Sequence record: NC_025430.1
Strand: one strand, 5' to 3'
Source: Escherichia phage vB_EcoM-ep3
Length of the DNA stretch: 42,351 nucleotides
The notes beneath the pieces were generated by a model, which saw nothing but the letters and a program-made list of their open reading frames with translations, was not told where the DNA came from and did no database searches. Positions 1-42,344 of the stretch are shown here, in pieces. Within the stretch, counting starts at the first letter, position 1; the number at the start of each line of letters is the position of its first letter. The position numbers and the translations under genes are program-made.

Positions 1-27
1 AAAAAAAAACCCCGCCATAACGGCGGG
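1..27 (-). terminator. intrinsic terminator downstream of ssb
   Basis: Hairpin CCCGCC-ATAAC-GGCGGG (11-27) preceded on + strand by A9 (1-9), i.e. followed by a U-run on the - strand transcript; lies just 3' of the SSB stop. A near-identical hairpin recurs at 42328-42344. Confidence 0.7.
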
Positions 28-755: not shown

Positions 756-1143
756 GTTCTGCCACCGTGCATTTTGGATGGTGGAAGCCGTCCTGGTGCT
801 GGCACACAGGGCAGCAATCGCGCGGCTGTTCGTTGTCGTTACCAGCTACCGGATGGCGGCCACGTTCCAGCGCGATGACCGCGCCAGCCAGGTAGTTGAT
901 TGCGCCTAACAGTTCCGCCACATCGCGGCCCGCTGGAAGGCGCTGTGATTCCTGCGCTTTCTTCGCTGCCTGGCCGAGTGCGAACCCTGGCCCGTACAGG
1001 TCAATCAGTTTTTGCATGGGCTGCTGGTCAAACGGCTTGTTTACCGCGTGACGTTCGTGGCCTTTGCCACTGGCAGCCTGCGCAAATGCCCGGTCAAGTA
1101 CATCGCGCAGTGATTCATATCCGTTAGCGGGTGGTCGTGTCAT
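748..1143 (-). CDS. hypothetical protein
   Basis: 131-aa ORF in the leftward operon, 8-bp overlap with the downstream gene; Cys/His-rich C-terminus (CCPVCQHQDGFHHPKC); no family recognised by eye. Confidence 0.5.
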   Translation of the reverse strand: MTRPPANGYESLRDVLDRAFAQAASGKGHERHAVNKPFDQQPMQKLIDLYGPGFALGQAAKKAQESQRLPAGRDVAELLGAINYLAGAVIALERGRHPVAGNDNEQPRDCCPVCQHQDGFHHPKCTVAEHG

Positions 1144-1351
1144 TGTCGTTTGCTCCGATCATGTGTTTTGCTTCATACGCTTCCACGCTGGTGATGGAGT
1201 AGCGAACGCGTGAGCCAAATTTTGTATAGGCTGGCCCTTTACCTTTGTTGCGCCAGTTCGCCAGGGTTCCGGTGGTAACTGCGCCATTCCAGCGCAGCAC
1301 CAGTTCCTGTGGCGTCAGATACGTGCTTTGTTTCTGTGCCGGTTGTGCCAT
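1124..1351 (-). CDS. helix-turn-helix DNA-binding protein (AlpA/excisionase-like)
   Basis: 75 aa; segment LTPQELVLRWNGAVTTGTLANWRNKGKGPAY resembles AlpA/Xis-type HTH proteins; overlaps neighbours by 20 and 0 bp. Confidence 0.55.
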   Translation of the reverse strand: MAQPAQKQSTYLTPQELVLRWNGAVTTGTLANWRNKGKGPAYTKFGSRVRYSITSVEAYEAKHMIGANDNDTTTR

Positions 1352-2381: not shown

Positions 2382-3524
2382 TTAAGCCGCACCAACCAGG
2401 TGGGCGTTTTTGTTGGCGTGCCACGCTGGCAGGCTGATGGTCTGGATTTTATCGCCGTATCCAGGCCAAACACCTGTGCGCACGCATTCAGCGTAGACAC
2501 GCAAATCATGCTGGTATTGTGCGCGGCCAATTTCTACGCCTTCGCTATCCAGTACATAAACACCAACTGCGTAAGGCGGTTTTTTCTCAACGGCGATAAA
2601 CGCAAAGTGTTTAGGATAACCACGCCAGAAATCAGGGCGGCAGCGGCACAGAACACCGGTCACCGGATCAGTCCAGTAAACTGATAATTCTGCTTTGCCT
2701 TCGTGCGGAGGCGTGCACTTGCCCTGTTCCAGAGCCAGACGCGTGCCGTCCATGTAGTATGCGTGTTGCACGTCATAGCGCCAGTTGGCGATTGATTTTG
2801 CGAACCCTTCCGGGCTGGCATCTTCGGTGGTTTTCAAGTCACCAATGATGTCTTTGACGTGGTGCAGGATAGCGAACGCTGCCGGATGATTCATTACCGC
2901 GTCACGCATGGCAAAAATTTGTTCAAACGCTTCCGGTGATAGCACTTTGCGTTCGCTGTTATTGCGCTGCCATTCTTCCAGCACATCTGACCACAGTGTG
3001 ACTTCAACGCCGTTGGCGCGCAGCAGGTTGGCCAGCTCATGACGGCTGCCGCTGGTGGATAGTTTGCCAGGACGGTCAATATTCAACTGGTTGATGATTT
3101 CTTTCAGGTCTGGCGCTTTCATCGCGTTAAGCTGTTCAGTAGTCCAGGTTTCAACAGGCTGGTTTTCCAGGATGCGTTCAACCAGTTCGCCTTTGTTGCC
3201 ACCAGTCAGCAGCTTAGGCAGGCGGCCTTCGTTCAGCTTGTTGACCATTTCCACCAGCACTTCACGGTCATCAATAGCATCAGGCACATCAGGACGGCGC
3301 AGCGCCAGGCAATAGGTTTTTGCGAATTCTTCCGGTTCAAGAATTGCCATATGCACAGCCGTGCCGATTTCCTGCGCTGGTGTTGGCGTGCGGTCATTAG
3401 CAGCAGTCACAACAGCGTTGTAGTGCATCGGGCTGCGGTGCACCAAATCCAGGCCAGATTTACTGATGCCTGGTCCGCCGTGGTATTCAGCGTTGGGAAT
3501 ACCTTCGTAAACTCCTGGTTTCAT
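2382..3524 (-). CDS. PD-(D/E)XK-type nuclease (phage exonuclease-like)
   Basis: About 380 aa; N-terminal GIPNAEYHGG...SKSGL motif typical of phage RecB/Cas4-like exonucleases; start moved to ATG at 3524 (MKPGV) with GAGG 8 nt upstream, rather than the longer ORF-track start at 3539. Confidence 0.7.
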   Translation of the reverse strand: MKPGVYEGIPNAEYHGGPGISKSGLDLVHRSPMHYNAVVTAANDRTPTPAQEIGTAVHMAILEPEEFAKTYCLALRRPDVPDAIDDREVLVEMVNKLNEGRLPKLLTGGNKGELVERILENQPVETWTTEQLNAMKAPDLKEIINQLNIDRPGKLSTSGSRHELANLLRANGVEVTLWSDVLEEWQRNNSERKVLSPEAFEQIFAMRDAVMNHPAAFAILHHVKDIIGDLKTTEDASPEGFAKSIANWRYDVQHAYYMDGTRLALEQGKCTPPHEGKAELSVYWTDPVTGVLCRCRPDFWRGYPKHFAFIAVEKKPPYAVGVYVLDSEGVEIGRAQYQHDLRVYAECVRTGVWPGYGDKIQTISLPAWHANKNAHLVGAA

Positions 3525-3575
3525 TATGTTACCTCGCAATTATTATTTAACATGAATTCGGATTAACTGCGGTGA

Positions 3576-3605
3576 ATTATGGCTGACGTGTTGTTATACT
3601 GTCAA
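3576..3605 (-). promoter_or_regulatory. candidate sigma70 promoter of the leftward early operon
   Basis: On the - strand: TTGACA (rc of 3600-3605), 18-nt spacer, CATAAT (rc of 3576-3581); about 45 nt upstream of the exonuclease start. Confidence 0.45.
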
Positions 3606-3662
3606 CTTATTTGTAACTAACATTGTTTAGATCAGCGTCACGCTCGCTAATCAACAAACCTT

Positions 3663-3714
3663 AGCTGTACATCAGCTATGCGTTTTTTGCACATCGCGGC
3701 TTGATTGACGTCAA
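3663..3714. promoter_or_regulatory. palindromes in the divergent intergenic region (candidate operators)
   Basis: AGCTG-N5-CAGCT at 3663-3677 and perfect 10-bp palindrome TTGACGTCAA at 3705-3714, between the two divergent promoters. Confidence 0.35.
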
Positions 3715-3730
3715 TGAACATTACTACTGG

Positions 3731-3760
3731 TTGCAACGTCGCCATGTAGTAACATACAAT
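3731..3760 (+). promoter_or_regulatory. candidate sigma70 promoter of the rightward operon
   Basis: TTGCAA (3731-3736), 18-nt spacer, TACAAT (3755-3760); about 40 nt upstream of the helicase start. Confidence 0.4.
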
Positions 3761-3797
3761 TGCGAATACTTTAAATGATGGCGAATGAACGATAATT

Positions 3798-5216
3798 ATG
3801 GGCGTAATACTTAGGGACTATCAATCCGACATTATCAATAAGGCGCGCCTTTCTATGCGGCGCAACCGCCGCGTGTTATTGCAGGCACCAACAGGCGCGG
3901 GCAAAACTGCGCTGGCGTCATACATGGCTGGGGAAACATCGGCCAAAGGCCAGCAGGTGTGGTTTATTTGCCACCGCGCTGAACTGGTATTACAGACCAG
4001 TTTGACATTCAGGAAGTTCGGCATTGACCACGGCTTTATTGCCGCAGGCTATCCCATGAACCTGCGCGCCGGGGTGCAGGTGTGCAGCATCGACACCCTG
4101 AAAAACCGCCTGCACACCCTGCCAGCTCCTAAGCTGGCCATCATGGACGAAGCGCACCACTGTGGCGCGGCTGGATGGGCGCGCGTCAACGCCTGGCTGT
4201 TCGAGAATGGCGCGTATGTAATCGGCCTGTCAGCCACGCCAAAGCGCCTGGACGGCACCGGCCTGGATGACCACTTTGATGACATCGTGTTGGGGCCATC
4301 GGTGCGCTGGCTGATGGATAACGGCCACCTGTCTGATTATCGCATGTTCTGCCCGGACATCCCTGACATGAAGGGTGTACGCAAACAGATGGGCGATTTC
4401 TCAAAAGGAGAAACCGCCGAGAAGATGGATAAGCCGAAACTAACCGGCAACATCATCAGCCACTGGCTGAAATACGCCAGGGGCATGAAAACGGTTGGCT
4501 TTGCGGTCAACATCGCGCACAGCCGCCACTTAACGCAGGCATTCATTGATTCAGGCATCCGCGCCGCGCACCTGGATGGCGGCACCGATAAGGCGGAACG
4601 CAAGCGCATCATTCAGGACTATGCCAACGACAACCTGGATGTGATTTTCAACGTGTCGCTGTTCGGTGAAGGTTTCGACCTGTCAGCTATCGCACAGACT
4701 GACGTGACGATTGACTGCCTGATTGACGCGCAGCCCACACAATCATTGTCGCTGGTTTTGCAGAAAGATGGCCGCGTGTTGCGACCGTCCAAAGGCAAAA
4801 CCGCCATCATCCTGGACCACGCAGGCAATGCGCTGCGTCATGGCTTCCCTGACGATGAACGGGAATGGTCACTGGCTGGCGATGATAGCGGCAGCAAATC
4901 CAGCAGTGCTGGTGGTCCACCGCCGCCAGTCATCTGCAAAGGCTGTTTCAACGCCATCCGCCGACCACTGCCGCCGAAGTGCCCGCACTGCCAGAAGGAA
5001 CTACAGGCCGAAGCCAAAGAAATTGAAGTGGCAGAAGGAGAACTGCGCGAAATGGACGAACGCGCCAAAGAAAGCCTGCGCGCCAAGATGAGGCGCGAGG
5101 AGGACGCTTGCAAGGATATTGGCGCACTTACTGCCCTGGCGATGAAACGCGGGCTGCCGAACCCATCAGGGTGGGCCATAGCGAAGATGGGTGGAAGAAG
5201 ATTTAAGCGCAAATAG
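3798..5216 (+). CDS. superfamily-2 DNA helicase with C-terminal zinc ribbon
   Basis: 472 aa; motif I LLQAPTGAGKT, motif II AIMDEAHH (DEAH-like), GLSATP motif III, C-terminal CKGCF...CPHCQ zinc ribbon. Confidence 0.85.
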   Translation: MGVILRDYQSDIINKARLSMRRNRRVLLQAPTGAGKTALASYMAGETSAKGQQVWFICHRAELVLQTSLTFRKFGIDHGFIAAGYPMNLRAGVQVCSIDTLKNRLHTLPAPKLAIMDEAHHCGAAGWARVNAWLFENGAYVIGLSATPKRLDGTGLDDHFDDIVLGPSVRWLMDNGHLSDYRMFCPDIPDMKGVRKQMGDFSKGETAEKMDKPKLTGNIISHWLKYARGMKTVGFAVNIAHSRHLTQAFIDSGIRAAHLDGGTDKAERKRIIQDYANDNLDVIFNVSLFGEGFDLSAIAQTDVTIDCLIDAQPTQSLSLVLQKDGRVLRPSKGKTAIILDHAGNALRHGFPDDEREWSLAGDDSGSKSSSAGGPPPPVICKGCFNAIRRPLPPKCPHCQKELQAEAKEIEVAEGELREMDERAKESLRAKMRREEDACKDIGALTALAMKRGLPNPSGWAIAKMGGRRFKRK

Positions 5217-5320
5217 TAGAGTAATTAATAGGTATAACCGATTGGCGATATTTACCAAAGGAAATGTATAGTTATTTCACCGGCACACAGGTGCCCAACA
5301 ACAAAAGAGGAAACACCCAA

Positions 5321-5989
5321 ATGGCACGTTTAACCGCTGCAATCCGTGATGGCATCATTGCCAACGCAATCAAAACCAAAGACTTTGCAGGCCGTGACAT
5401 GGCTATTGTTCAGAAGCGCGCTGATTTTGCTGAACGTCTGCGCAAGTATGCGCTTGCACAATATGGCCTTACTGATGCGCGCCTTATTGAAATTAAAAAG
5501 CAGATTGAAGAACTGCAAAACGAAGTTAAGCACGAAGGAGCAAGGTTCGTTCGAATTACTTTTGACTCAACTAACCGTGCTTGGGATGTGAACCTGGCAG
5601 GACAGGCGCGCAGGCTTTATCTTGATGGTACTTGTTCAGGGGAAAGCGTAAAACCGCTTTATAGTGATTCACGCGTAGAATACAGCGACGATAAAATTAC
5701 TCCACATTTCCATGAATCTGATTTCACAGTGCGCGATCCTAAATGGCGCGAAGAACTGGACGCCATTGACCTGGAAGCGGCGCAACTGCGTGAAGAATAC
5801 AACACGCTTAAATCAACACTGGCAGCGACAATTTCAGGATTCACGACGGTGGAAAAACTTCTGGAAGCCTGGCCAGACGCGAAAGAACTGATTCCAGAAA
5901 CAACGCCGATTGCTAAACATCCAGGAACAGGCATTGCGCTGTCGGTAGCTGAACTTAACGCGCTGTGTGGAATTCCTACCGGAAAATAA
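5321..5989 (+). CDS. hypothetical protein
   Basis: ORF trimmed to ATG 5321 (MARLTAAIRD) with AAGAGG 10 nt upstream; coding-like composition, coiled-coil-like central region; no family recognised. Confidence 0.55.
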   Translation: MARLTAAIRDGIIANAIKTKDFAGRDMAIVQKRADFAERLRKYALAQYGLTDARLIEIKKQIEELQNEVKHEGARFVRITFDSTNRAWDVNLAGQARRLYLDGTCSGESVKPLYSDSRVEYSDDKITPHFHESDFTVRDPKWREELDAIDLEAAQLREEYNTLKSTLAATISGFTTVEKLLEAWPDAKELIPETTPIAKHPGTGIALSVAELNALCGIPTGK

Positions 5990-6032: not shown

Positions 6033-6425
6033 ATGAAAAAACTTATCATCGCCGCTTTCATCCTGGCGGCCACCAGCGTCACTGCACAGGCGCGCGAATG
6101 TCTGCCAGGCATGGACCCGGCAAAAGACAACTGCCAGGTGACGGAAGAACAGGAACCGGCACCACAGCCGGAATTACAGGACGTTGACCAGGTTTACTAC
6201 TGCCTGGAACTGCAAAAAATCGCCGTCAAAATCGCTGAACTGCGCGACAAAGGCGCAGGCGAACAGGGCGTGGTCACACTGCTGGCTAACAACAACCAGA
6301 ACCGCATCATTTGGGTGGCGCGCCAGGTGTTCTGGCCGCAATCGGCAAGCCTTCGTCCTGAACAAATCGGCCTGCGTGTGTGGATGCGCTGCAATTCTGG
6401 TGAATATCCGGGAGCCGTCAAATGA
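6033..6425 (+). CDS. putative secreted/periplasmic protein
   Basis: Start trimmed to MKKLIIAAFILAATSVTAQA, a typical Sec signal peptide with AQA cleavage motif; about 130 aa. Confidence 0.55.
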   Translation: MKKLIIAAFILAATSVTAQARECLPGMDPAKDNCQVTEEQEPAPQPELQDVDQVYYCLELQKIAVKIAELRDKGAGEQGVVTLLANNNQNRIIWVARQVFWPQSASLRPEQIGLRVWMRCNSGEYPGAVK

Positions 6426-6529
6426 AACTGTTCCTGCGTGGCGTCCTGGCGATGCTGCATGATGAATTATTCTGGCTGCTGGTGGTGCTGGCCGCCTGTG
6501 CTTACCTGGTGGGGGTTATCTATGGCTAA
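6422..6529 (+). CDS. small hydrophobic membrane peptide (35 aa)
   Basis: ATG at 6422 to TAA at 6527-6529, frame checked: MKLFLRGVLAMLHDELFWLLVVLAACAYLVGVIYG; below the ORF-track size cutoff; its stop overlaps the start of the next gene. Confidence 0.35.
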   Translation: MKLFLRGVLAMLHDELFWLLVVLAACAYLVGVIYG

Positions 6530-6932
6530 CAAAGAACACGCGTTGCAGAACGCAATCCGCAACGCACTGGCGGGTCGCTGCCTGCTGTTTCGCGCCAACG
6601 TGGGCAAGGCGTACACCAGCAATGACGTGGTGAAGGTGCCGCGCCAGATGCCGGTTGTGATGGGGCCGCGTGACGTGCTGCTGAAAAACGCCAGGCCGTT
6701 TGACACCGGGCTGCCGCCAGGGTTTTCCGACCTGTTCGGCCTGGTCAGTGTAGAAATCACACCTGACATGGTGGGGCAGAAAGTGGCCATCTTCACCGGC
6801 CTGGAAGTCAAAGACGGTGCCCGCGTGTCACCATTGCAGCGAAACTTCATCAACGCGGTGAACGACAACGGGGGCCGCGCCGGTGTTGTGCGGTCAGTGG
6901 ATGACGCTGAAAAACTGGTGTTCGGAAAATGA
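6522..6932 (+). CDS. VRR-NUC domain nuclease
   Basis: Start trimmed to MANKEHALQNAIRNALAG; conserved-looking GFSDLFG...EVKDGARVSPLQRNFINAV region resembles VRR-NUC (PD-(D/E)XK) proteins. Confidence 0.7.
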   Translation: MANKEHALQNAIRNALAGRCLLFRANVGKAYTSNDVVKVPRQMPVVMGPRDVLLKNARPFDTGLPPGFSDLFGLVSVEITPDMVGQKVAIFTGLEVKDGARVSPLQRNFINAVNDNGGRAGVVRSVDDAEKLVFGK

Positions 6933-7007
6933 GCATAAAACACATAGCAGCCGACGCACTGCGCTACAGCGTCGAAACCGGACAATCAATGATGGAGCGG
7001 CTAAACC

Positions 7008-7172
7008 ATGATGACAATAGAAAGCATTCGCAGACTGTTTGCAGAAGCACTGGTGACCAGGAACCACATCACGTTCCTGGCGGCCAAAACGGCAATGTGG
7101 AATCTGAACCGTTACGGCATGTTGACGGCGATTGACGTGGAAAACCTGAAAAAAACGTGGGGTGTTGAATGA
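7008..7172 (+). CDS. hypothetical small protein (54 aa)
   Basis: Frame-checked ORF MMTIESIRRLFAEALVTRNHITFLAAKTAMWNLNRYGMLTAIDVENLKKTWGVE; GGAGCGG upstream; stop overlaps the next start (ATGA). Preferred over the overlapping ORF-track entry 6929..7135. Confidence 0.45.
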   Translation: MMTIESIRRLFAEALVTRNHITFLAAKTAMWNLNRYGMLTAIDVENLKKTWGVE

Positions 7173-7405
7173 ATATTTTCAAAGTAGCAATGCAGCGGCT
7201 GGTTGACGCCTGGAAGTTATCAGCCAGGGAAATCAGCCTGGGTTTTCAAATGGCGCTGGTGCGCGCTGGCTGGCGTCCAAAGGTGCGGTCAATGCAAGTG
7301 GTGCTGGACTATCCGAAGCCAGGGCCACGCCGTTCACGCTTCACCGGCATTGCAGCCATGCGCCGTGAAGCACGCCGCAAACGTAACCGGAGGCACGCAG
7401 CATGA
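7169..7405 (+). CDS. hypothetical protein
   Basis: 78 aa, basic C-terminus; ATGA-coupled to both neighbours. Confidence 0.45.
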   Translation: MNIFKVAMQRLVDAWKLSAREISLGFQMALVRAGWRPKVRSMQVVLDYPKPGPRRSRFTGIAAMRREARRKRNRRHAA

Positions 7406-7626
7406 ACCCGGTAGACTTCATCAAAAAACAAGTCATGGCCGAACTGGTGAAGCAAGGCGCATCACCTGGCACAGCGCAGCACGCGGCTGACTACGCGGCG
7501 CAACAGTACCGCACCACGTCAGCCATCGGCAAAGACCCGTTCGCTGAACTGATACGCCTGGCAGGCGCAATGGCCATGAAGCACCAGGCCGGTTTCCGCT
7601 TCGTGATGCCGCGCGCATCAAAATGA
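7402..7626 (+). CDS. hypothetical protein
   Basis: 74 aa; ATGA overlap with the upstream gene; coding-like composition. Confidence 0.5.
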   Translation: MNPVDFIKKQVMAELVKQGASPGTAQHAADYAAQQYRTTSAIGKDPFAELIRLAGAMAMKHQAGFRFVMPRASK

Positions 7627-7648
7627 CGTAAGATTATTTCAAAAGGTA

Positions 7649-7686
7649 TTTACTTTCGGAAATGCGCCCTGTACTATGGGCGCATT
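7649..7686 (+). promoter_or_regulatory. candidate promoter with overlapping inverted-repeat operator
   Basis: TTTACT (7649-7654), 17-nt spacer, TACTAT (7672-7677); perfect 9-bp inverted repeat AATGCGCCC (7661-7669) / GGGCGCATT (7678-7686) straddles the -10; 20 nt upstream of the HTH gene. Confidence 0.45.
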
Positions 7687-7706
7687 GTTATTACGAGGCT
7701 ATTACT

Positions 7707-7895
7707 ATGGACGAAAGGACCGAACGACTTCACAACATTATGGCTGAACATGGCTTAACCTGCCGCGACGTTGGCCGTTTACTTGGGCGCACTGAACAAA
7801 CGGTGCTTATCTGGCGCTGTAAGGGCGGGAAAGTCATTCCGACCCACCAGCTTGAATTGCTTGAACTGAAACTGAACGCGCAGGCGGAAAAATGA
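7707..7895 (+). CDS. helix-turn-helix transcriptional regulator
   Basis: Trimmed to ATG 7707 (MDERTERL); HTH-like segment LTCRDVGRLLGRTEQTVLIWR; the longer ORF-track start at 7662 lies inside the palindrome. Confidence 0.55.
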   Translation: MDERTERLHNIMAEHGLTCRDVGRLLGRTEQTVLIWRCKGGKVIPTHQLELLELKLNAQAEK

Positions 7896-8122
7896 ACGCC
7901 TGTACCTGGCAGCCAACCACAGTGACGCTGCAAGATGGGCGCGAAGTGTTGAGCGATAGCCGGGAATGGTTGCTGGAATGCGAAGCCAAATACGTTCTGA
8001 ATCAGCCAACCATTGAAGCACGGCGCACCCTGCTGGCAGCGATAGAAAAACGGCGCGGCGCAACAGCCCGCGAAGAACTAGAACAACGCGCACTGGCCAT
8101 ATGGCGCGCTAACAGGCCATAA
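7892..8122 (+). CDS. hypothetical protein
   Basis: 76 aa; ATGA overlap with the HTH gene; immediately upstream of the primase. Confidence 0.5.
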   Translation: MNACTWQPTTVTLQDGREVLSDSREWLLECEAKYVLNQPTIEARRTLLAAIEKRRGATAREELEQRALAIWRANRP

Positions 8123-8134
8123 AATCGGGGTTCT

Positions 8135-10444
8135 ATGAGTGCACAACAAAACTATAAGGATTTGACCGAACAGGAAATTGCAGAAGCACTTTCCTACATC
8201 GACGCCGGTTGCGACCGTGAAACATGGGTGCGCATGGCGATGGCGGTTAAATCGGAACTAGGCGACGGCGGTTTCACCGTCTGGAATGACTGGTCACGCC
8301 AGTCTGACAAGTACAACAGCAAAGACGCGCGCGACACCTGGAAATCAGTGAAGCGTCACGGCGGCATTGGCATTGGCACCCTGATTGGTGAGGCGCAGCA
8401 GTTCGGCTTTTCCCTGAACGATGCAGAACGCACGCCGCTGACAGCGGAAGAAATCGACGCACGCAAGCGCAAGCGCGAAGCCGAAGAAAAGGCAGAGCAG
8501 CAGCGCCGCGCCGAACGTATGGCGCAGGCAGCCGAACAGGCGCGCAACATATGGGAATCAGCCACCGAACTGGAAGGCGATGAACACCCCTATTTGCAGC
8601 GCAAGCAGGTGCAGGCGTTCGGCCTGCGCGTTGGGCGGTTCTGGACCGAAAAGCGCAGCATTGATGGTGCGCTACTGGTTCCTGTGCGTAACATTGACGG
8701 GCAGATCACCAGCTTGCAGGCCATCTTCCCGAACGAAAACCCACAGCTAGGGCGTGACCGTGATTATTTGCCTGGCGGCCAGAAGCGCGGATGCTTCCAC
8801 GTCATAGGCGGCAAGCCGACTGGCGGAAGCCCGGTTATTGTCATCTGTGAGGGCTATTCAACCGGCGCGTCAATCCACCAGGCAACCGGCTACTGCGTTG
8901 TAGTGGCGTTTGATGCCGGTAACGTTCCGACCGTGGCCAAGTTGATGCGCCAGCAGTTCGGACGCGCAACAATTGTTGTGGCAGCCGATAACGACCAGTG
9001 GCACGAAGATGGCAAGCAAAATGATGGCGTTCACTACGCGCGCCAGGCCGCAACCACATGCGGTGGCCTGCTGGTGGTTCCGAAGTTCGCCGCATTAAGC
9101 GACAAGCCGACCGACTTTAACGACCTGCACAACCTGCAAGGGCTGGCAGAAGTTAAGCGGCAGATTAACGCCGCAATACCTGAACCGGCAAATGACAACT
9201 TTCTGCCGCTGGATGCAACGGTCAACCCGTTCATGTACCCGCACATGAGCCACCAGCAAAAGCCATTAAGCACCTGGGAAAACCTGGAATGGCTGCTGGA
9301 ACAGTACGGCATCACGGCGCGATATAACGAAATCAGCAAAGATGTGGTGGTGACCATTCCAGGGCGTGACTACGGCGTTGACGCTGCGGCCAACTGTTCC
9401 CTGGCGGAAGTTTCCAGCCTGTGTGCCCGCAACGGTATGCCAAAAGGTGATGTGGGCGACTACATCAAGCTGATTGGCGTGGCCAACCGTTACAACCCGG
9501 CTGCTGATTTCATCACGTCACGGCCATGGGATGGCGTCAGCCGCATTTATGACCTGGTTGACACCCTGACCACGCCGGAAGGCTTTGACCGCAGCCTGGT
9601 GCTGATGATGGTGCGCCGCTGGCTGATTTCTGCCGTGGCTGCCGTCATGAAGCCAACCGGGTTCTGGTCCAAAGGCGTCCTGGTGTTACAGGGTGACCAG
9701 TCATTGGGGAAAACGTCCTGGTTTAAAGCACTGCTGCCGCCGACCATGCGCGACCTGGTGAAAGATGGCGCGACCATCGACCCTAGCAACAAAGACAGCG
9801 TGACCACCGCGATTGGCCACTGGATGGTTGAGCTGGGCGAACTAGATGCAACGTTCCGCAAGGCTGACATTGCCAGGCTGAAATCCTTCATCAGTTCTGA
9901 CGTGGACATGCTGCGCCGCCCTTATGACCGGCTTGAATCGAAGTACCAGCGCCGAACGGTGTTTTTTGCGTCAGTGAACCCCAAACACTTCCTGGCCGAT
10001 GACACCGGGAACGTTCGCTGGTGGACCATTCCGGTGACCGGCGTGAACTACGCCCACGACATCGACACGCAACAGTTATGGGCAGAAGTGGCGCAACTGT
10101 ACCGTGACGGCGAACGCTGGTGGCTGGATCGTGATGAAGAAGCCATGCTGGAAGGCGTCAACAAGGAACACGAATCCATTGACCCGGTAGAGGAAATGAT
10201 ACTGGCGCGCTTTGAGTGGGGCAGCGAACGCATCAGCGCCTACCGCGAACATACCGCCAGCCAGGTGTTGCAGGAAATCGGATTTGATAAGCCGAACAAG
10301 TCACAGGCCACGCATTGCAGTAACGTGCTGCGCAAGCTGACCGGGCAGGAACCGCGCAAGACGAAAAACGGGCGGTTCTTCAACCTGCCGCCGAAGGTGT
10401 TGCAGCCGGATTACCGGCGACCAGATGACAATTCACCGTTTTGA
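8135..10444 (+). CDS. DNA primase-helicase (P4 alpha-like)
   Basis: 769 aa; N-terminal primase-like region, TOPRIM-like acidic motifs (VIVICEGYSTG, VVAADNDQ), C-terminal NTPase region with Walker A QGDQSLGKTS; size and domain order match P4 alpha-type primases. Confidence 0.88.
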   Translation: MSAQQNYKDLTEQEIAEALSYIDAGCDRETWVRMAMAVKSELGDGGFTVWNDWSRQSDKYNSKDARDTWKSVKRHGGIGIGTLIGEAQQFGFSLNDAERTPLTAEEIDARKRKREAEEKAEQQRRAERMAQAAEQARNIWESATELEGDEHPYLQRKQVQAFGLRVGRFWTEKRSIDGALLVPVRNIDGQITSLQAIFPNENPQLGRDRDYLPGGQKRGCFHVIGGKPTGGSPVIVICEGYSTGASIHQATGYCVVVAFDAGNVPTVAKLMRQQFGRATIVVAADNDQWHEDGKQNDGVHYARQAATTCGGLLVVPKFAALSDKPTDFNDLHNLQGLAEVKRQINAAIPEPANDNFLPLDATVNPFMYPHMSHQQKPLSTWENLEWLLEQYGITARYNEISKDVVVTIPGRDYGVDAAANCSLAEVSSLCARNGMPKGDVGDYIKLIGVANRYNPAADFITSRPWDGVSRIYDLVDTLTTPEGFDRSLVLMMVRRWLISAVAAVMKPTGFWSKGVLVLQGDQSLGKTSWFKALLPPTMRDLVKDGATIDPSNKDSVTTAIGHWMVELGELDATFRKADIARLKSFISSDVDMLRRPYDRLESKYQRRTVFFASVNPKHFLADDTGNVRWWTIPVTGVNYAHDIDTQQLWAEVAQLYRDGERWWLDRDEEAMLEGVNKEHESIDPVEEMILARFEWGSERISAYREHTASQVLQEIGFDKPNKSQATHCSNVLRKLTGQEPRKTKNGRFFNLPPKVLQPDYRRPDDNSPF

Positions 10445-10451
10445 ATAATAA

Positions 10452-10475
10452 CCCGCTTCGGCGGGTTTTGTTTTT
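10452..10475 (+). terminator. intrinsic terminator after the primase gene
   Basis: CCCGC-TTCG-GCGGG hairpin (10452-10465) followed by TTTTGTTTTT. Confidence 0.8.
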
Positions 10476-10540
10476 ATTGATAGGTATAAACGATTATATC
10501 ATTTACATAAGTAAATATAGAATTCATCTATCGAAAACGA

Positions 10541-10567: not shown

Positions 10568-11545
10568 ATGGGTAGCATTGTGAATAAATACGAATTGCAT
10601 TTAGGTGATTGCCTGGAAGTTATGAAGTCTATTCCAGCCGGTAGCGTTGATTTGGTTCTGTGTGATCCGCCGTATGGCACCGCTGGCGGAATGGGAAAGG
10701 GTGAAGAACGCTATTCACGAATTGCGAACGCTGAATGGGATAACGCTATTTCTCCGCAGGCCATTTTTGAAGAATGCAACCGCGTTTTGCGAACTAACGG
10801 CGCTCTTATTCTGTTCAGCCAGGAACCTTACACCAGCAAGTTAATCACAGCGGCGCATGGAAATCTGCCTTTCAGTTATCGACTAATGTGGCTGAAAGAC
10901 CATTTCTCTAACTCGCTGTTGGTAAATAAAGCGCCTGTTTCATACTTTGAAGATTTAGTGGTGTTCTTCAAGAAATATGACACGCTGGCACAGCATCCGC
11001 TAAGGGATTATGCCAAAAAAATCATGGAATACATTGGCAGAAATATAAAGCAGATAAACACTGATTTAGGTCACAGGCGCGCGGAACACTTTTTTTATGT
11101 TGAATCAACGCAGTTCGGGCTGTGTACTGAAAAGACATACAACCAGATTATTGCGCACTATGGGCTTAGTGTGTGTGACTGGCTTATGACTTATGCTGAA
11201 ATGTTAGAAATTGACCGCAGGTTTGCCCGCAGGTTTAACCTGGCGGATGGTGCAAAATACAAATCTAACGTTCTTCAGTACAAAAAGGATTATACCGGCC
11301 TTCACCCAACACAGAAGCCGGTAGCACTGCTGGCTGACATCATCAGGACATATTCAAACCCTGGCGAAACGGTTCTAGATTTCACTATGGGGAGCGGGTC
11401 AACAGGAGTCGCCTGCATCAATGAAGGCCGTAACTTCATAGGAATTGAACTTGATGAAACCTATTTCCAGACAGCGCAGGGGCGCATAATGGAAGCAGCA
11501 GCCGCAAACGATAACCAGGCAAGTAGCAATTCTGTTGTAGCATAA
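10568..11545 (+). CDS. DNA methyltransferase (N6-adenine/N4-cytosine, beta-class)
   Basis: 325 aa; motif IV LCDPPYGT precedes motif I LDFTMGSGSTG (beta-class order); AT-rich relative to neighbours; no cognate restriction enzyme gene nearby. Confidence 0.85.
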   Translation: MGSIVNKYELHLGDCLEVMKSIPAGSVDLVLCDPPYGTAGGMGKGEERYSRIANAEWDNAISPQAIFEECNRVLRTNGALILFSQEPYTSKLITAAHGNLPFSYRLMWLKDHFSNSLLVNKAPVSYFEDLVVFFKKYDTLAQHPLRDYAKKIMEYIGRNIKQINTDLGHRRAEHFFYVESTQFGLCTEKTYNQIIAHYGLSVCDWLMTYAEMLEIDRRFARRFNLADGAKYKSNVLQYKKDYTGLHPTQKPVALLADIIRTYSNPGETVLDFTMGSGSTGVACINEGRNFIGIELDETYFQTAQGRIMEAAAANDNQASSNSVVA

Positions 11546-13120: not shown

Positions 13121-13140
13121 TTACTTTTATCTATTGATAC

Positions 13141-13164
13141 AGCGCCTTAATGGCGCTTTTTTTG
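13141..13164 (+). terminator. intrinsic terminator
   Basis: AGCGCC-TTAAT-GGCGCT hairpin followed by TTTTTTTGTTT. Confidence 0.8.
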
Positions 13165-13185
13165 TTTATGAGCGACTCAATAAAA

Positions 13186-13449
13186 AAGTTGGTCACCGTA
13201 GTCACCTGGTAGTCACCGCTTAAACCAATGATATATATACGAAATGACCAAGTGACCAAGGGAGACAAGGAAATAAAAGATTTTAAAAGGTGACAAAAGC
13301 ATTGAGCGCATTAGTACCTAACAGCAACTTTATGAAAACATGGTCGAGTTGGTCACCAAGCCCATAAAAACGGCGCTTTTTCCTTAAAAATCAAGGTGAC
13401 CGAGAAAAACACCGCTTGTCTCCCTGTAGTCACCTATTTCTGGTCACCG
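13186..13449. repeat. iteron array: about 10 copies of GGTCACC/GTCACC core in both orientations (candidate replication origin)
   Basis: Copies at 13191-13197, 13201-13206, 13212-13217 (tandem GTAGTCACC), 13245-13260 (TGACCAAG x2), 13289-13294, 13351-13357 (within palindrome TTGGTCACCAA), 13395-13401, 13429-13434, 13442-13448, with an AT-rich stretch at 13221-13240; no ORF. Confidence 0.7.
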
Positions 13450-13507
13450 TTCATCTTTTCGGCTACAATCCCTATATTGACTTTTATTTATAATTATTGG
13501 GGGTTAC

Positions 13508-13942
13508 ATGGAATTACCGCGCACTGTGCAGGAAATAGCTGACGTTATTGGCCGTGAACGTGCGCTATATCTTATCGGACAACTACCAAAATTGTGGGTG
13601 CCATCGCAGCAGTACCACAAAGTAATTTTGTATGTGCCAAAGCGGATTCGGCCCAATGACCCCCTGGTGAAAATTCTTGGATGGAGTGACGCCAGCAAGA
13701 TGGTGCAGCACTTCGGTGGTGAAATGCTTCACCCGGCTAATTGCGAATACATTTACCGCCGTTTCATCCACAGCAGCATCAAGCGGATGCACAGCGAAGG
13801 AATGGACGCAAAAGCCATTGCGGAACTGCTGGACGTTTCAGAACGCACCGTGAAGCGGCACTGCACTGACAAACCCCACAAAGACACATCACCTGCAAAT
13901 GACAACACTCCCGAACGACTACTAACCGCTATGGGGCAATGA
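13508..13942 (+). CDS. Mor/C-family-like transcriptional activator
   Basis: 144 aa; GGGGG RBS; central FGGE...P segment and C-terminal HTH (MDAKAIAELLDVSERTVKRH) resemble the Mu Mor/C late-activator layout; sits immediately upstream of the lysis and structural genes. Confidence 0.55.
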   Translation: MELPRTVQEIADVIGRERALYLIGQLPKLWVPSQQYHKVILYVPKRIRPNDPLVKILGWSDASKMVQHFGGEMLHPANCEYIYRRFIHSSIKRMHSEGMDAKAIAELLDVSERTVKRHCTDKPHKDTSPANDNTPERLLTAMGQ

Positions 13943-31493: not shown

Positions 31494-32921
31494 ATGGCAG
31501 GTACTGATTTTTTACATGGCGTGGAGGTGCTGGAAATTGATTCCGGTTCACGCGTCATTCAAACCGTTAAATCAAGCGTCATCGGTATTGTTGGCACCGC
31601 GCCAAATGCTGACCCTGACGCATTCCCGCTAAACACCCCAACCCTGATTGCAGGCAGCCAGCGCGAAGCGGCCAAACTGGACATGCTTGGCACCGGTGAA
31701 GGCACCCTTCCCAAAGCACTGGATGCCATCCTGGACCAGATCGGCGCTGTGGTCATCGTTGTGCGTGTTGAAGAAGGCGAAAACGAAGCCGCAACGCTGG
31801 CCAACATCATGGGTGGAGTTAACGCATCAACCGGCAAATATGAAGGCGTTCACGCACTGCTTGGCGCTGAATCCGTTGTGGGCTACTCGCCGCGCATTCT
31901 GTGCGTTCCCGGCTTCACGCATACCCGCGTTCAGGATGGCGTCACCGCTATCACCATCGGCAACGGCGGCAGCGGTTACACCGAAGCGCCTACGGTCACC
32001 CTGGCTGGTGGCGGCGGTGGTTCTGGCGCAACTGCGCAAGCAACCGTGGTTGGTGGCGTCATCACCAAAATCATCGTCACCAACGCTGGCATGGGTTACA
32101 CCAAAGCGCCAACCGTCACCATCACTGGCGGCAACGGCACCGGCGCAACTGCAACCGCATCCGTTGGTATCGCAGCCAATGCCGTGGTTTCTGAACTGCT
32201 TGGCATCGCCAACCGCCTGCGTGCTGTCATCATCGCTGACGGTCCAAACACCAACGACGCTGACGCCATCGCCTACCGCAAAGACTTTGGCAGCAAGCGC
32301 GTTTATGTGGTTGACCCAAAAGTGCTGGTGCTTGACGAGGATGGCACCACGATTACTGACTGGGCATCGCCGCGCGTGGCTGGACTGATTGCCCGCATCG
32401 ACAACGAGCGCGGTTTCTGGTGGTCACCATCAAACCAGGAAATCTATGGCATCCAGGGCACGGCCAGAACCATTGATTTCACCCTGGGTGACACGTCCAG
32501 CCGTGCAAACCTGCTGAACGAAAACGAAGTCACCACCATCATTCGCCAGGACGGTTTCCGCCTGTGGGGCAACCGCACCACTTCCAGCGATCCGAAATGG
32601 GCGTTTCTGTGCGTTGTTCGCACGGCTGACATCATCAATGACAGCCTGTTGCGTGCACACCTGTGGGCCGTAGACCGTGGCATCACCAAACAATACGTCA
32701 ATGACGTGATTGAAGGCGTGAACGCGTACCTGCGCAACCTGGTGAGCCTGGGCGCAATTCTTGGCGGCACGTGTTGGGCTGACCCTGACTTAAATACTGC
32801 TGACCAAATCGCTGACGGTAAGGTATACTTTGATTTTGATTTCACGCCTGTTTATCCGGCTGAACACATTATCTTCCGCAGCCAATTGACCAACGATTAT
32901 ATTAGTGAGGTATTCGAATAA
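31494..32921 (+). CDS. tail sheath protein (P2 FI-like)
   Basis: 475 aa; N-terminus [20 protein letters not shown] and C-terminal [14 protein letters not shown]...CWADPD follow the P2 FI pattern; carries an internal Gly-rich tandem-repeat insertion. Confidence 0.9.
31941..32170 (+). repeat. internal tandem repeat within the sheath gene
   Basis: Two about 105-bp units encoding [25 protein letters not shown] and [24 protein letters not shown]; similarity visible at the nucleotide level. Confidence 0.6.
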
Positions 32922-33974: not shown

Positions 33975-34658
33975 ATGAAGAAAGTAACCAAGAGTGAGGC
34001 GATAGAGCAAGGGCTTAATTATTACTTTACTGGTAAGCCATGTAAGCATGGGCACGTCAGCGAAAGGTATATAAAAGGCGGAGCTTGCGTGGCTTGCCAG
34101 AGAATTAAAAGCAAAGAGTTCAGTAAAAACAATGTTGAATCAGAAAGGATTAGGAAGCATCTAGATTATCTTGCGCACAAGGAAGAAAGGAACGAGAGAA
34201 ATAAATCTTGGCAAAAAAGAAACAGGGCAAAAGTCTCAGAGTATGTTGCAAAATGGAGGAAAAAAAACAGGGAGAAGGTGAACGAAATGGCCGCTGAGTT
34301 AAGGCGCAAAAACCCAGAAAAGCAAAAAGAGGCTGACAGGAGATGGAGAGCAAAAAACAAACACAAGGTGGCCAAGAAAGACGGTCTTAAAAGGGCAGCA
34401 AAACTGGCAAGAATTCCAGTTTGGTTTGGTGAATTTGATGATTTTGTGATTCAGGAAGCGCACACGCTGGCAGCGTTAAGAGGTGATGAAACCGGAATAC
34501 CCTGGCACGTTGACCACATGTTGCCAATGAGGGGGAGAAAAATTTCCGGGTTACACTGCGCGCATAATATCCAGGTGATTCCGGCAGCCATGAATGTGAG
34601 AAAAATCAACAAAATGGTTTTGACCAACCCACTAGAGTGGTTACGCGATGGCGTCTAA
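33975..34658 (+). CDS. HNH endonuclease (free-standing, homing-type)
   Basis: 227 aa; N-terminal Cys/His cluster (CKHGH...CVACQ), C-terminal HNH-like motif WHVDHMLP...LHCAHNIQVIPAAMNVRK; lysine-rich middle; AT-rich; inserted between chaperone and tape-measure. Confidence 0.65.
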   Translation: MKKVTKSEAIEQGLNYYFTGKPCKHGHVSERYIKGGACVACQRIKSKEFSKNNVESERIRKHLDYLAHKEERNERNKSWQKRNRAKVSEYVAKWRKKNREKVNEMAAELRRKNPEKQKEADRRWRAKNKHKVAKKDGLKRAAKLARIPVWFGEFDDFVIQEAHTLAALRGDETGIPWHVDHMLPMRGRKISGLHCAHNIQVIPAAMNVRKINKMVLTNPLEWLRDGV

Positions 34659-42322: not shown

Positions 42323-42344
42323 AAAAACCCGCCATAACGGCGGG
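42323..42344 (-). terminator. intrinsic terminator for a - strand transcript entering from beyond the window
   Basis: CCCGCC-ATAAC-GGCGGG hairpin (42328-42344) preceded on + by AAAAA; 22-nt near-identical to the terminator at 1-27. Confidence 0.6.

Follow-up and report, generated by a model that had tools for sequence, protein, structure and literature searches.

Layout of the locus and its conservation

The DNA analyzed here (the window; NC_025430.1, 42,351 nucleotides, Escherichia phage vB_EcoM-ep3) is an essentially complete genome of about 42 kb belonging to a Jilinvirus-like myophage (Iiscvirinae). We considered positions 7008-7895 of its early region, where three small open reading frames (ORFs) are followed by a promoter and a gene for a helix-turn-helix (HTH) protein. 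Over positions 6400-8200, the identity of the window to Salmonella phage PT1 is 97%, and that to the Escherichia phages HeidiAbel_Bas97 (Bas97), Alux-21, ECO1230-10, and ECOO78 is 92-96%. These small myoviruses of unclear ("enigmatic") lifestyle form a facultatively temperate lineage, of which just a few members have kept intact integrase and cI-like genes (BASEL paper, PMC11990801). No description of the promoters or regulators of these phages was found in the papers searched. The segment and its continuation downstream contain the following features:

7008-7172, plus strand: ORF54, 54 amino acids (aa), phrog_19635; clade-restricted
7169-7405, plus strand: ORF78, 78 aa, phrog_21931; basic C-terminus, clade-restricted
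7402-7626, plus strand: ORF74, 74 aa, phrog_4439; last gene of the upstream operon
7648-7663, unstranded: dyad ATTTAC-TTTC-GGAAAT with one mismatch, the left half of which doubles as the -35 element (TTTACT, 7649-7654); candidate operator for the HTH protein
7661-7686, plus strand: perfect 9-bp inverted repeat AATGCGCCC-N8-GGGCGCATT, whose loop holds the -10 element (TACTAT, 7672-7677); the T-rich tail ATTGTTATTA comes next
7707-7895, plus strand: HTH gene, 62 aa, phrog_14341, predicted four-helix XRE/Cro-type fold; ribosome-binding site GAGG at 7695-7698
7892-8122, plus strand: DUF7696 ORF, 76 aa (PF24751, E 7e-17)
8135-10444, plus strand: primase/helicase gene, main cargo of the HTH operon, with PriCT_2, Toprim, and VapE-like domains
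10450-10476, plus strand: canonical intrinsic terminator AACCCGC-TTCG-GCGGGTT with a T-run, the end of the HTH-primase operon

The three small ORFs are linked by ATGA overlaps (ORF54/ORF78 at 7169-7172, ORF78/ORF74 at 7402-7405), as an earlier note on this sequence had described. Since four-base overlaps are frequent across this genome, the coupling is unremarkable. The chain does not end at the HTH gene, as that note had it: the HTH gene is itself coupled to the DUF7696 ORF by an ATGA overlap (7892-7895), the primase gene comes next, and upstream the chain extends to genes starting at 6422 and 6522. The frames of all three small ORFs are intact in 9 phage and 9 metagenomic relatives; changes are mainly synonymous in ORF74 and in the neighboring nuclease gene, and ORF54 is fast-evolving. 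A lack of conservation in relatives, by which the earlier note would have been refuted, is thus not what is seen. Homologs of ORF74 (20 clusters, all at least 62% identical) and of ORF78 (77 clusters) were found in this clade only, and an exhaustive HMMER search with ORF54 yielded one real cluster at 50% identity. No family, structure, or literature match was found for any of the three: Pfam and NCBIfam hold no curated family and PHROGs only function-less families, while the model of ORF74, a predicted three-helix bundle with a confidence score (pLDDT) of 85, has no match in the PDB (E > 2) and only nameless viral proteins as structural neighbors. The small-ORF chain is, judged from its gene content, a variable accessory region, because extra ORFs are inserted within it in ECOO78 (99 aa; L014, 2385-2684) and in locus L049 (64 aa; 1769-1963). 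An alternative ORF in another frame (6929-7135, 68 aa) overlaps the stop codon of the nuclease gene by ATGA and is open in close relatives; it is probably not a gene, given its overlap with the conserved ORF54 and a large excess of non-synonymous over synonymous changes in relatives.

The HTH gene is real. Its product matches phrog_14341 (E 6e-19, residues 1-61 against positions 1-63 of a 184-position profile), a family whose name, "transcriptional repressor," is annotation only. The Pfam family HTH_23 scores 20.3 bits, below its cut-off of 24.6, with HTH_31 and HTH_26 weaker still; HTH_23 matches 66 of 85 homologs of the protein at E ≤ 0.01. The NCBIfam scan returned nothing meaningful. Compared with solved structures, the single sequence had no match, and the profile had only weak XRE matches (3op9, E 0.007; 3b7h, E 0.14). 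The AlphaFold2 model (pLDDT 94) has helices at residues 3-15, 19-26, 30-37, and 46-61, and the predicted fold is an HTH of the XRE/Cro-C1 type. Foldseek matched it to HipB, CapH, Aca10, Aca1, C.EcoT38IS, C.BclI, ClgR, P2 C, P22 c2, and 434 Cro with TM scores of about 0.6-0.83 and no E-value below 0.09. Because these matches are generic for XRE/Cro proteins and none has E < 0.09, the fold cannot separate functional classes. The start codon is probably ATG 7707 rather than ATG 7662 inside the palindrome, because relatives keep only the 62-aa form and do not keep ATG 7662 as a start.

Approximately 190 clusters of HTH homologs were collected by tblastn and profile searches, almost all of them on 40-44-kb contigs of this phage lineage. 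The scan for related loci returned 3 loci with the single HTH protein and 25 with a sub-alignment. The inspected loci include Jilinvirus relatives, Serratia MQ-4, Enterobacter Arya, Pseudomonas PPpW-3 and Persinger, Burkholderia Mica, Ralstonia phiRSP, Achromobacter Mano, Xanthomonas FoX5, Phobosvirus PspYZU01, and contigs from IMG/VR and Logan. At every one (more than 25 relatives, at least 7 host genera), the HTH gene lies upstream of the primase/helicase gene, in some relatives with a DUF7696, methyltransferase, or endonuclease VII gene between them, and is always preceded by a non-coding gap of 60-95 nt. The hosts belong to Escherichia, Salmonella, Klebsiella, Enterobacter, Serratia, Pseudomonas, Burkholderia, Ralstonia, Achromobacter, and Xanthomonas. 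By this distribution, the HTH gene is a core gene, apparently a vertically inherited regulator of the replication module. In some relatives (L002, L015, L048, L049, L050), an insertion placed exactly at the boundary of the HTH gene and DUF7696 carries a methyltransferase gene, either of a 232-aa type (ECO1230-10, KA2-1) or of a 350-aa PF00145 type; the 232-aa ORF at this site in L049 has no recorded Pfam hit. The junction at 7892 thus looks to be a hot spot for cargo directly behind the regulated promoter.

The promoter that the earlier note had placed before the HTH gene is present and conserved across relatives. Its elements (TTTACT, N17, TACTAT) have 8/12 matches to the consensus and were left unlisted by a promoter scan with a threshold of 9/12. 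The -35 (TTTAC[T/A] or ATTCAC) and -10 elements recur in over 20 diverse loci, approximately 45 nt upstream of the ATG; the -10 variants are TACAAT, TACTAT, TATCAT, TATAGT, and TATAAT, often within TGGTACAAT. In relatives with 70-90% identity of the HTH protein, the 80-bp gap is nearly invariant; the loop TGTACTAT changes to GTTATTAT or TGTAGTAT, with TAnnAT always retained. Transcription would start near A7684. The discriminator is GC-rich (TACTAT-GGGCGC-A, 7678-7683), as in all members of the family, and AT-rich at the other promoters that carry the dyad. A DksA-like zinc-finger protein (phrog_54) is encoded at 546-755 on the minus strand, and stringent-type control via the discriminator and this protein is possible.

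The GC-rich inverted repeat around the -10 element

The -10 element indeed lies within a perfect 9-bp inverted repeat, as the earlier note had stated. Chance expectation for a 9-bp repeat with a spacer of 4-12 nt is about 1.4 in 42 kb and about 0.003 in this 80-bp gap. The sequence is unique in the window even with 3 mismatches allowed (1 match, 0.04 expected); half-site searches gave only scattered matches in coding sequences, and the palindrome was thus rejected as a repeated operator.

Repeats of this kind around the -10 are seen across the family, with loops of 8-15 nt and with arms that are unrelated between clades yet complementary (AATGCGCCC, AATGCGCCG, AATGGTCCT, GCGCCC, CGCGACGT, GGCCGA, TGCGG, GAAGGCG, AAACGTCCA). 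Its significance was assessed at 21 loci by shuffling the flanks with the -10 held fixed. We obtained p ≤ 0.001 for the window, MQ-4, Arya, FoX5, and L040/L041, and p = 0.004-0.07 for eight further loci. When G·U pairs were allowed on the sense strand, the summed stems at the 21 loci grew from 129 to 158 bp (+29), as against 140 (+11) for A·C pairs, the antisense equivalent; the gain was larger from G·U in 12 loci and from A·C in 2. G·U pairing gives stems of 8-9 bp in L026, L034, and L039, which are otherwise stemless. The sole arm variant within the Jilinvirus clade, a C-to-T change in the left arm of L046, produces a G·U pair. The hairpin lies 35 nt past the stop codon of ORF74. A-rich and T-rich flanks accompany it in the enterobacterial and L040 clades, T-rich tails being found in MQ-4 and Arya among others, and the predicted fold of 7627-7710 (-21.5 kcal/mol, z -2.3) includes the 9-bp stem. 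An 8-bp repeat with an 8-nt spacer inside ORF54 (CCAGGAAC...GTTCCTGG, 7057-7080) served as a negative control: its left arm decays uncompensated in relatives, as expected of a chance match, and conservation of the promoter hairpin is therefore not automatic.

The arms and their covariation are observed directly; what they suggest is that the GC palindrome is most likely an RNA hairpin ending the small-ORF operon rather than a protein site, because loop and register vary, the arms differ under an identical recognition helix, and G·U pairs are favored. In the reading closest to the earlier note, the palindrome would be the operator of the HTH protein, and a bound dimer would occlude the -10 and repress its own gene. 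That the palindrome is perfect, genome-unique, and centered on the -10 agrees with such an operator, but the position of the stem with respect to the -10 differs from clade to clade, and its mismatches favor sense-strand G·U, which points to RNA. In MQ-4 and Arya the recognition helix differs too, and the changes in the arms are symmetrical; Burkholderia-type relatives, on the other hand, share one recognition helix (RTAQTVRVW) and have differing arms with spacers of 8, 10, 11, 14, and 15 nt. The XRE protein HipB, whose structure is among the fold matches of the HTH protein, binds TATCC-N8-GGATA, and N8 is the commonest palindrome spacer (window, Arya, FoX5, Mano, L039, and Phobosvirus). Used as half-sites, however, arms of 9 bp would have centers 17 bp apart, which is far for a dimer of a 62-aa, four-helix protein, and a dyad of fixed spacing found at several promoters (see below) explains regulation more economically. 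We therefore consider the GC palindrome unlikely to be this operator.

Acting on the transcript, the putative hairpin could be a terminator, an insulator, or a 3'-end stabilizer. With intrinsic terminators it shares a GC-rich 9-bp stem with A/U flanks 35 nt past a stop codon and covarying arms that tolerate G·U. It differs from them in its loop of at least 8 nt, which carries the -10 of the next promoter, and in a U-tract that is interrupted in this phage and missing in relatives that infect high-GC hosts, while the canonical terminators of this phage have loops of 4-5 nt and clean T-runs. Several observations count against a hairpin of this function. As a canonical terminator it is poor: the loop has 8 nt, 4 of 8 positions in the interrupted tail GTTATTAC are T, and the hairpin went unlisted in the terminator scan; the U-tract is missing from the relatives infecting Pseudomonas, Burkholderia, and Xanthomonas. 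A significant perfect repeat is lacking at 6 of the 21 loci. RNAalifold gave no consensus pairs for an alignment in which MAFFT anchors on the -10 and the stem register relative to it shifts between clades. Finally, in Phobosvirus relatives an 8-bp repeat with an N8 spacer precedes the homologous HTH gene, and its loop does not resemble a -10. This repeat, AGTTGTCC-N8-GGACAACT in PspYZU01 (L008, 2433-2456) and Phobos (L033, 1442-1465), stands directly before the ribosome-binding site; it could be an operator or a hairpin of the 5' untranslated region and looks more operator-like.

The 16-bp dyad and its candidate ligand

A second symmetrical element overlaps the promoter. The dyad at 7648-7663, whose right half overlaps the outer part of the left arm of the hairpin, has further copies in the window, two of them accompanied by a conserved element upstream:

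5250-5265, unstranded: dyad ATTTAC-CAAA-GGAAAT with one mismatch, after the helicase gene at the start of the small-ORF operon; -10-like TATAGT at 5267-5272
10501-10516, unstranded: perfect dyad ATTTAC-ATAA-GTAAAT (no mismatches), after the primase terminator; -10-like TAGAAT at 10518-10523
3562-3577, unstranded: weaker dyad ATTAAC-TGCG-GTGAAT with two mismatches, over the leftward early promoter; also in ECO1230-10, function uncertain
5226-5243, plus strand: conserved upstream promoter element TAATAGGTATAACCGATT, with a second copy at 10478-10495 (2 matches, 0.04 expected)

The search of the window for ATTTAC-N4-GTAAAT gave 3 matches with at most one mismatch (0.06 expected), a number reached in none of 100 shuffled sequences. 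All four dyads, including the copy with two mismatches, are intergenic and lie in the early region; the weakest covers the -10 and start region of a minus-strand promoter (TTGACA 3605-3600, CATAAT 3581-3576). Dyads are present in all Jilinvirus relatives, and clade-specific versions occupy the same three positions, namely, after the helicase gene, before the HTH gene, and after the primase gene. Thus, Mica has ATTCAC-N4-GTGAAC at 31605, 34798, 36079, and 38942 (5 matches, 0.74 expected), MQ-4 has GTTTAC-N4-GTAAAC at 34233, 36571, and 39802, Persinger has this version at three equivalent sites, and Arya has, at the two sites seen, GTTTAA-N4-TTAAAC (behind the helicase gene) and TTTAA-ATTC-TTAAA (HTH promoter). 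The dyad at the HTH promoter is a perfect palindrome in L053 (ATTTAC-TTTG-GTAAAT) and MQ-4 (TTTAC-ATAA-GTAAA), and the N4 spacing is constant everywhere. Common to the dyad promoters other than the HTH promoter are the upstream element (TnATAGGTATAAnCGATT) and a -10 directly after the dyad; equivalents of the upstream element occur in MQ-4, Persinger, Mica, and all Jilinvirus relatives.

This recurrence is directly observed, and the 16-bp dyad is probably a better operator candidate than the GC palindrome. As for its ligand, the 62-aa HTH protein emerges by exclusion as the best candidate, an assignment to which we give somewhat better than even chances. Its recognition helix varies, and Arya, with its aberrant TTTAA half-site, carries Ser where Gln31 is otherwise conserved. 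One clade (IMG/VR contigs L040-L044) encodes the HTH domain duplicated in tandem in a single 129-aa protein and keeps the promoter layout (ATTTAC-CTAT-GGAAAC, a 9-10-bp hairpin around TATAAT, and a T-run); such a tandem chain supports action of the HTH protein as a dimer.

The dyad could instead be bound by another factor (the HTH_17 protein described below, a host protein, or the cI-like repressor of temperate relatives), the HTH protein having a different target or activating from the spacer. A cI-like repressor was tried and rejected as the dyad-binding protein. The window has no cI-like gene, including in the gap between the exonuclease VIII gene (2382-3539, minus strand) and the helicase gene (starting at 3798, plus strand), which we inspected (3540-3797) and where Bas97 has a 180-aa cI-like gene; yet it retains all of its dyads, and the cI-helicase gap of MQ-4 is dyad-free. 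The cI-like proteins of relatives belong to phrog_4, and their similarity to the HTH protein is only that of generic HTH sequences. The only other family-wide small DNA-binding protein is a 75-aa HTH_17 protein (1124-1351, minus strand), annotated as MerR-like or excisionase-like in relatives. MerR-activated promoters have a 19-bp distance between -35 and -10 with the operator in the spacer, and the dyads at 5250 and 10501 lie between a possible TTGGnn -35 and the -10 at just this distance; moreover, the conserved upstream element GATAGGTnTAAAC at these promoters implies a second factor. The recognition region of HTH_17 (VTTGTLANWR) and its C-terminal GANDN motif, however, are invariant across five host genera whose dyad half-sites differ, and at 75 aa the protein has neither the dimerization nor the effector domain of MerR. 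We speculate that HTH_17 may bind the conserved GATAGG...AAAC element upstream of the dyad promoters, and we consider a ligand of the dyad other than the HTH protein doubtful.

Taken together, the region can be read as the junction of two delayed-early transcription units, with control by the HTH protein on the dyad and an RNA hairpin between them, a reading to which we assign a probability of about 0.5. Unit 1 would run from the promoter near 5250-5272 through the genes for an Nmad5-domain protein, a secreted protein, and a VRR-NUC nuclease to ORF54, ORF78, and ORF74. Unit 2 would run from TTTACT-N17-TACTAT (7649-7677) through the genes for the HTH protein, DUF7696, and primase to the terminator at 10450. 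A dimer of the HTH protein would bind the dyad ATTTAC-N4-G(T/G)AAAT. Over its own -35 this would result in Cro-like negative autoregulation of the HTH-primase operon. Because the dyad also lies in the spacers of the 5250 and 10501 promoters and, as a weaker copy, over the leftward one at 3562, the protein would in addition tune the small-ORF and methylase operons. As to the sign of regulation, repression is the natural reading at the HTH promoter, and either repression or MerR-style activation may apply at the others. If the protein does bind the dyad, it also controls the small ORFs, because the 5250 promoter of their operon carries one. Read-through transcripts of unit 1 would form the hairpin, while those initiated at the HTH promoter would escape it, because their predicted start near A7684 lies just past the stem.

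Three points weigh against this reading. Assignment of the dyad to the HTH protein rests on exclusion and on a loose covariation confounded by phylogeny. The left half of the dyad doubles as a -35-like hexamer, and part of its conservation may reflect promoter function alone. The dyads at 5250 and 10501, finally, lie at about -14 to -29, a geometry also typical of the MerR-type activation mentioned above. As to the autoregulation that the earlier note had suggested, the layout remains consistent with it, but the GC palindrome is an unlikely operator, given its varying arms and spacers, its G·U pairs, and the recurring dyad.

The placement of the -10 inside the hairpin might go further and constitute a conserved functional device, a terminator-promoter overlap switch common to a phage lineage whose hosts range from enterobacteria to Xanthomonas. 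Transcripts of the small-ORF operon would then fold into the hairpin and end right at the HTH-primase promoter, and read-through, dyad occupancy, and the GC-rich discriminator, perhaps read by the DksA-like protein, would jointly time primase expression. We rate this extension as decidedly unlikely.

Comparison with known regulatory systems

By its proposed behavior, the HTH protein has its closest analog in lambda-type Cro. Like Cro, it is a small protein (62 aa) with a predicted XRE/Cro fold, encoded by the first gene of an operon with replication genes, and it has a candidate palindromic operator of the 14-18-bp class over its own promoter with more copies at other early promoters. Unlike cro, the HTH gene is neither adjacent nor divergent to a cI-like gene, which in relatives lies between the exonuclease VIII and helicase genes, 4 kb away; the window has no such gene and no sign of operators common to the HTH protein and cI. 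Sequence similarity to Cro families is lacking as well, and the model has four helices, as compared with five in 434 Cro.

The earlier note had likened the arrangement to acr-aca operons, in which case the small ORFs would be anti-defense or host-takeover factors, and the HTH protein would act as an Aca-like repressor dedicated to them. The small ORFs are short, fast-evolving, and clade-restricted, with extra ORFs at the same site in ECOO78 and L049, and their operon promoter carries a dyad; the operon that may be controlled in this way nonetheless consists mostly of core genes of DNA metabolism. As with Aca1 and Aca10, a small XRE-fold protein is encoded beside small uncharacterized ORFs with inverted repeats in the promoter, and its model superposes on both (TM 0.73-0.83, though with E ≥ 0.3). 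The fold, however, is the generic one shared with Cro, C proteins, and HipB, and no Aca sequence match was found in the PDB profile search, Pfam, or NCBIfam. The HTH gene is separated from the small ORFs by its own promoter and the hairpin, forming a distinct transcription unit coupled to DUF7696 and primase. It is fixed beside the primase gene and inherited vertically with it throughout one phage lineage, whereas aca genes move with variable acr cargo. Together with the absence of any family match for the small ORFs, this makes an acr-aca-type operon highly improbable.

Controller (C) proteins such as C.BclI and C.EcoT38IS are also small XRE-type HTH proteins with a dyad over their own promoter, and in some relatives a methyltransferase gene comes right after the HTH gene. 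Unlike in those systems, there is no restriction gene, and the methylase is optional, belongs to two unrelated families, and is missing from this position in the window. C-boxes, furthermore, are two adjacent palindromes upstream of the -35, as opposed to the one dyad and hairpin found here.

Other features of the early region and what the map provides

The remaining genes of unit 1 and of the neighboring operon are as follows:

5321-5989, plus strand: Nmad5-domain gene (PF18757, E 2e-36, match from residue 22), first in the small-ORF operon
6033-6425: early-operon protein with the N-terminal signal peptide MKKLIIAAFILAATSVTAQA, phrog_22028
6422-6529: 35-aa hydrophobic peptide, ATGA-coupled, in the same early operon
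6522-6932, plus strand: VRR-NUC nuclease gene (annotation: Holliday junction resolvase), located before the small ORFs; synonymous changes greatly exceed non-synonymous ones
10568-11545: N6/N4 DNA methyltransferase gene of the operon beginning at 10501

The true start of the Nmad5 gene is probably 5321 (M20 of the longer ORF from 5264), because the Pfam match begins at residue 22 and the proteins of relatives have 222-224 aa; ATG 5264 falls within the promoter. The signal-peptide protein and the 35-aa hydrophobic peptide are possible envelope or exclusion factors.

Additional repeats were noted elsewhere. The repeat TAGCTG-TACAT-CAGCTA, with a T-run, occupies 3662-3690 in the region that separates the divergent early promoters. 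In the 390-bp gap at 13121-13507, which precedes a late-activator-like gene (13508-13942, phrog_836), the sequences GGTCACC, GTAGTCACC, or GGTGAC(C) occur approximately ten times, pointing in both directions; they could be iterons of a replication origin or be bound by the late activator. At 13141 there is a canonical terminator, AGCGCC-TTAAT-GGCGCT with a T-run. Near-identical hairpins, CCCGCC-ATAAC-GGCGGG, occur at both ends of the window (11-27 and 42328-42344) and, if the genome is circular, would form a tandem terminator-like pair behind the SSB gene.

The proposed circuit is a classical kind of phage control, previously undescribed in this phage group, and leaves general principles unchanged; its unusual detail is the -10 element inside what appears to be a covarying hairpin. 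For the poorly characterized Jilinvirus and other Iiscvirinae, the analysis provides a first regulatory map, comprising a core 62-aa HTH protein, an operator-like 16-bp dyad that recurs at three or four promoters of the early region, the limits of three delayed-early operons, and a conserved hairpin embedding a -10. The map also corrects the starts of the HTH and Nmad5 genes, marks two hot spots for the insertion of accessory genes, methyltransferases included, and places the orphan small ORFs in a defined operon that is probably controlled by the HTH protein.

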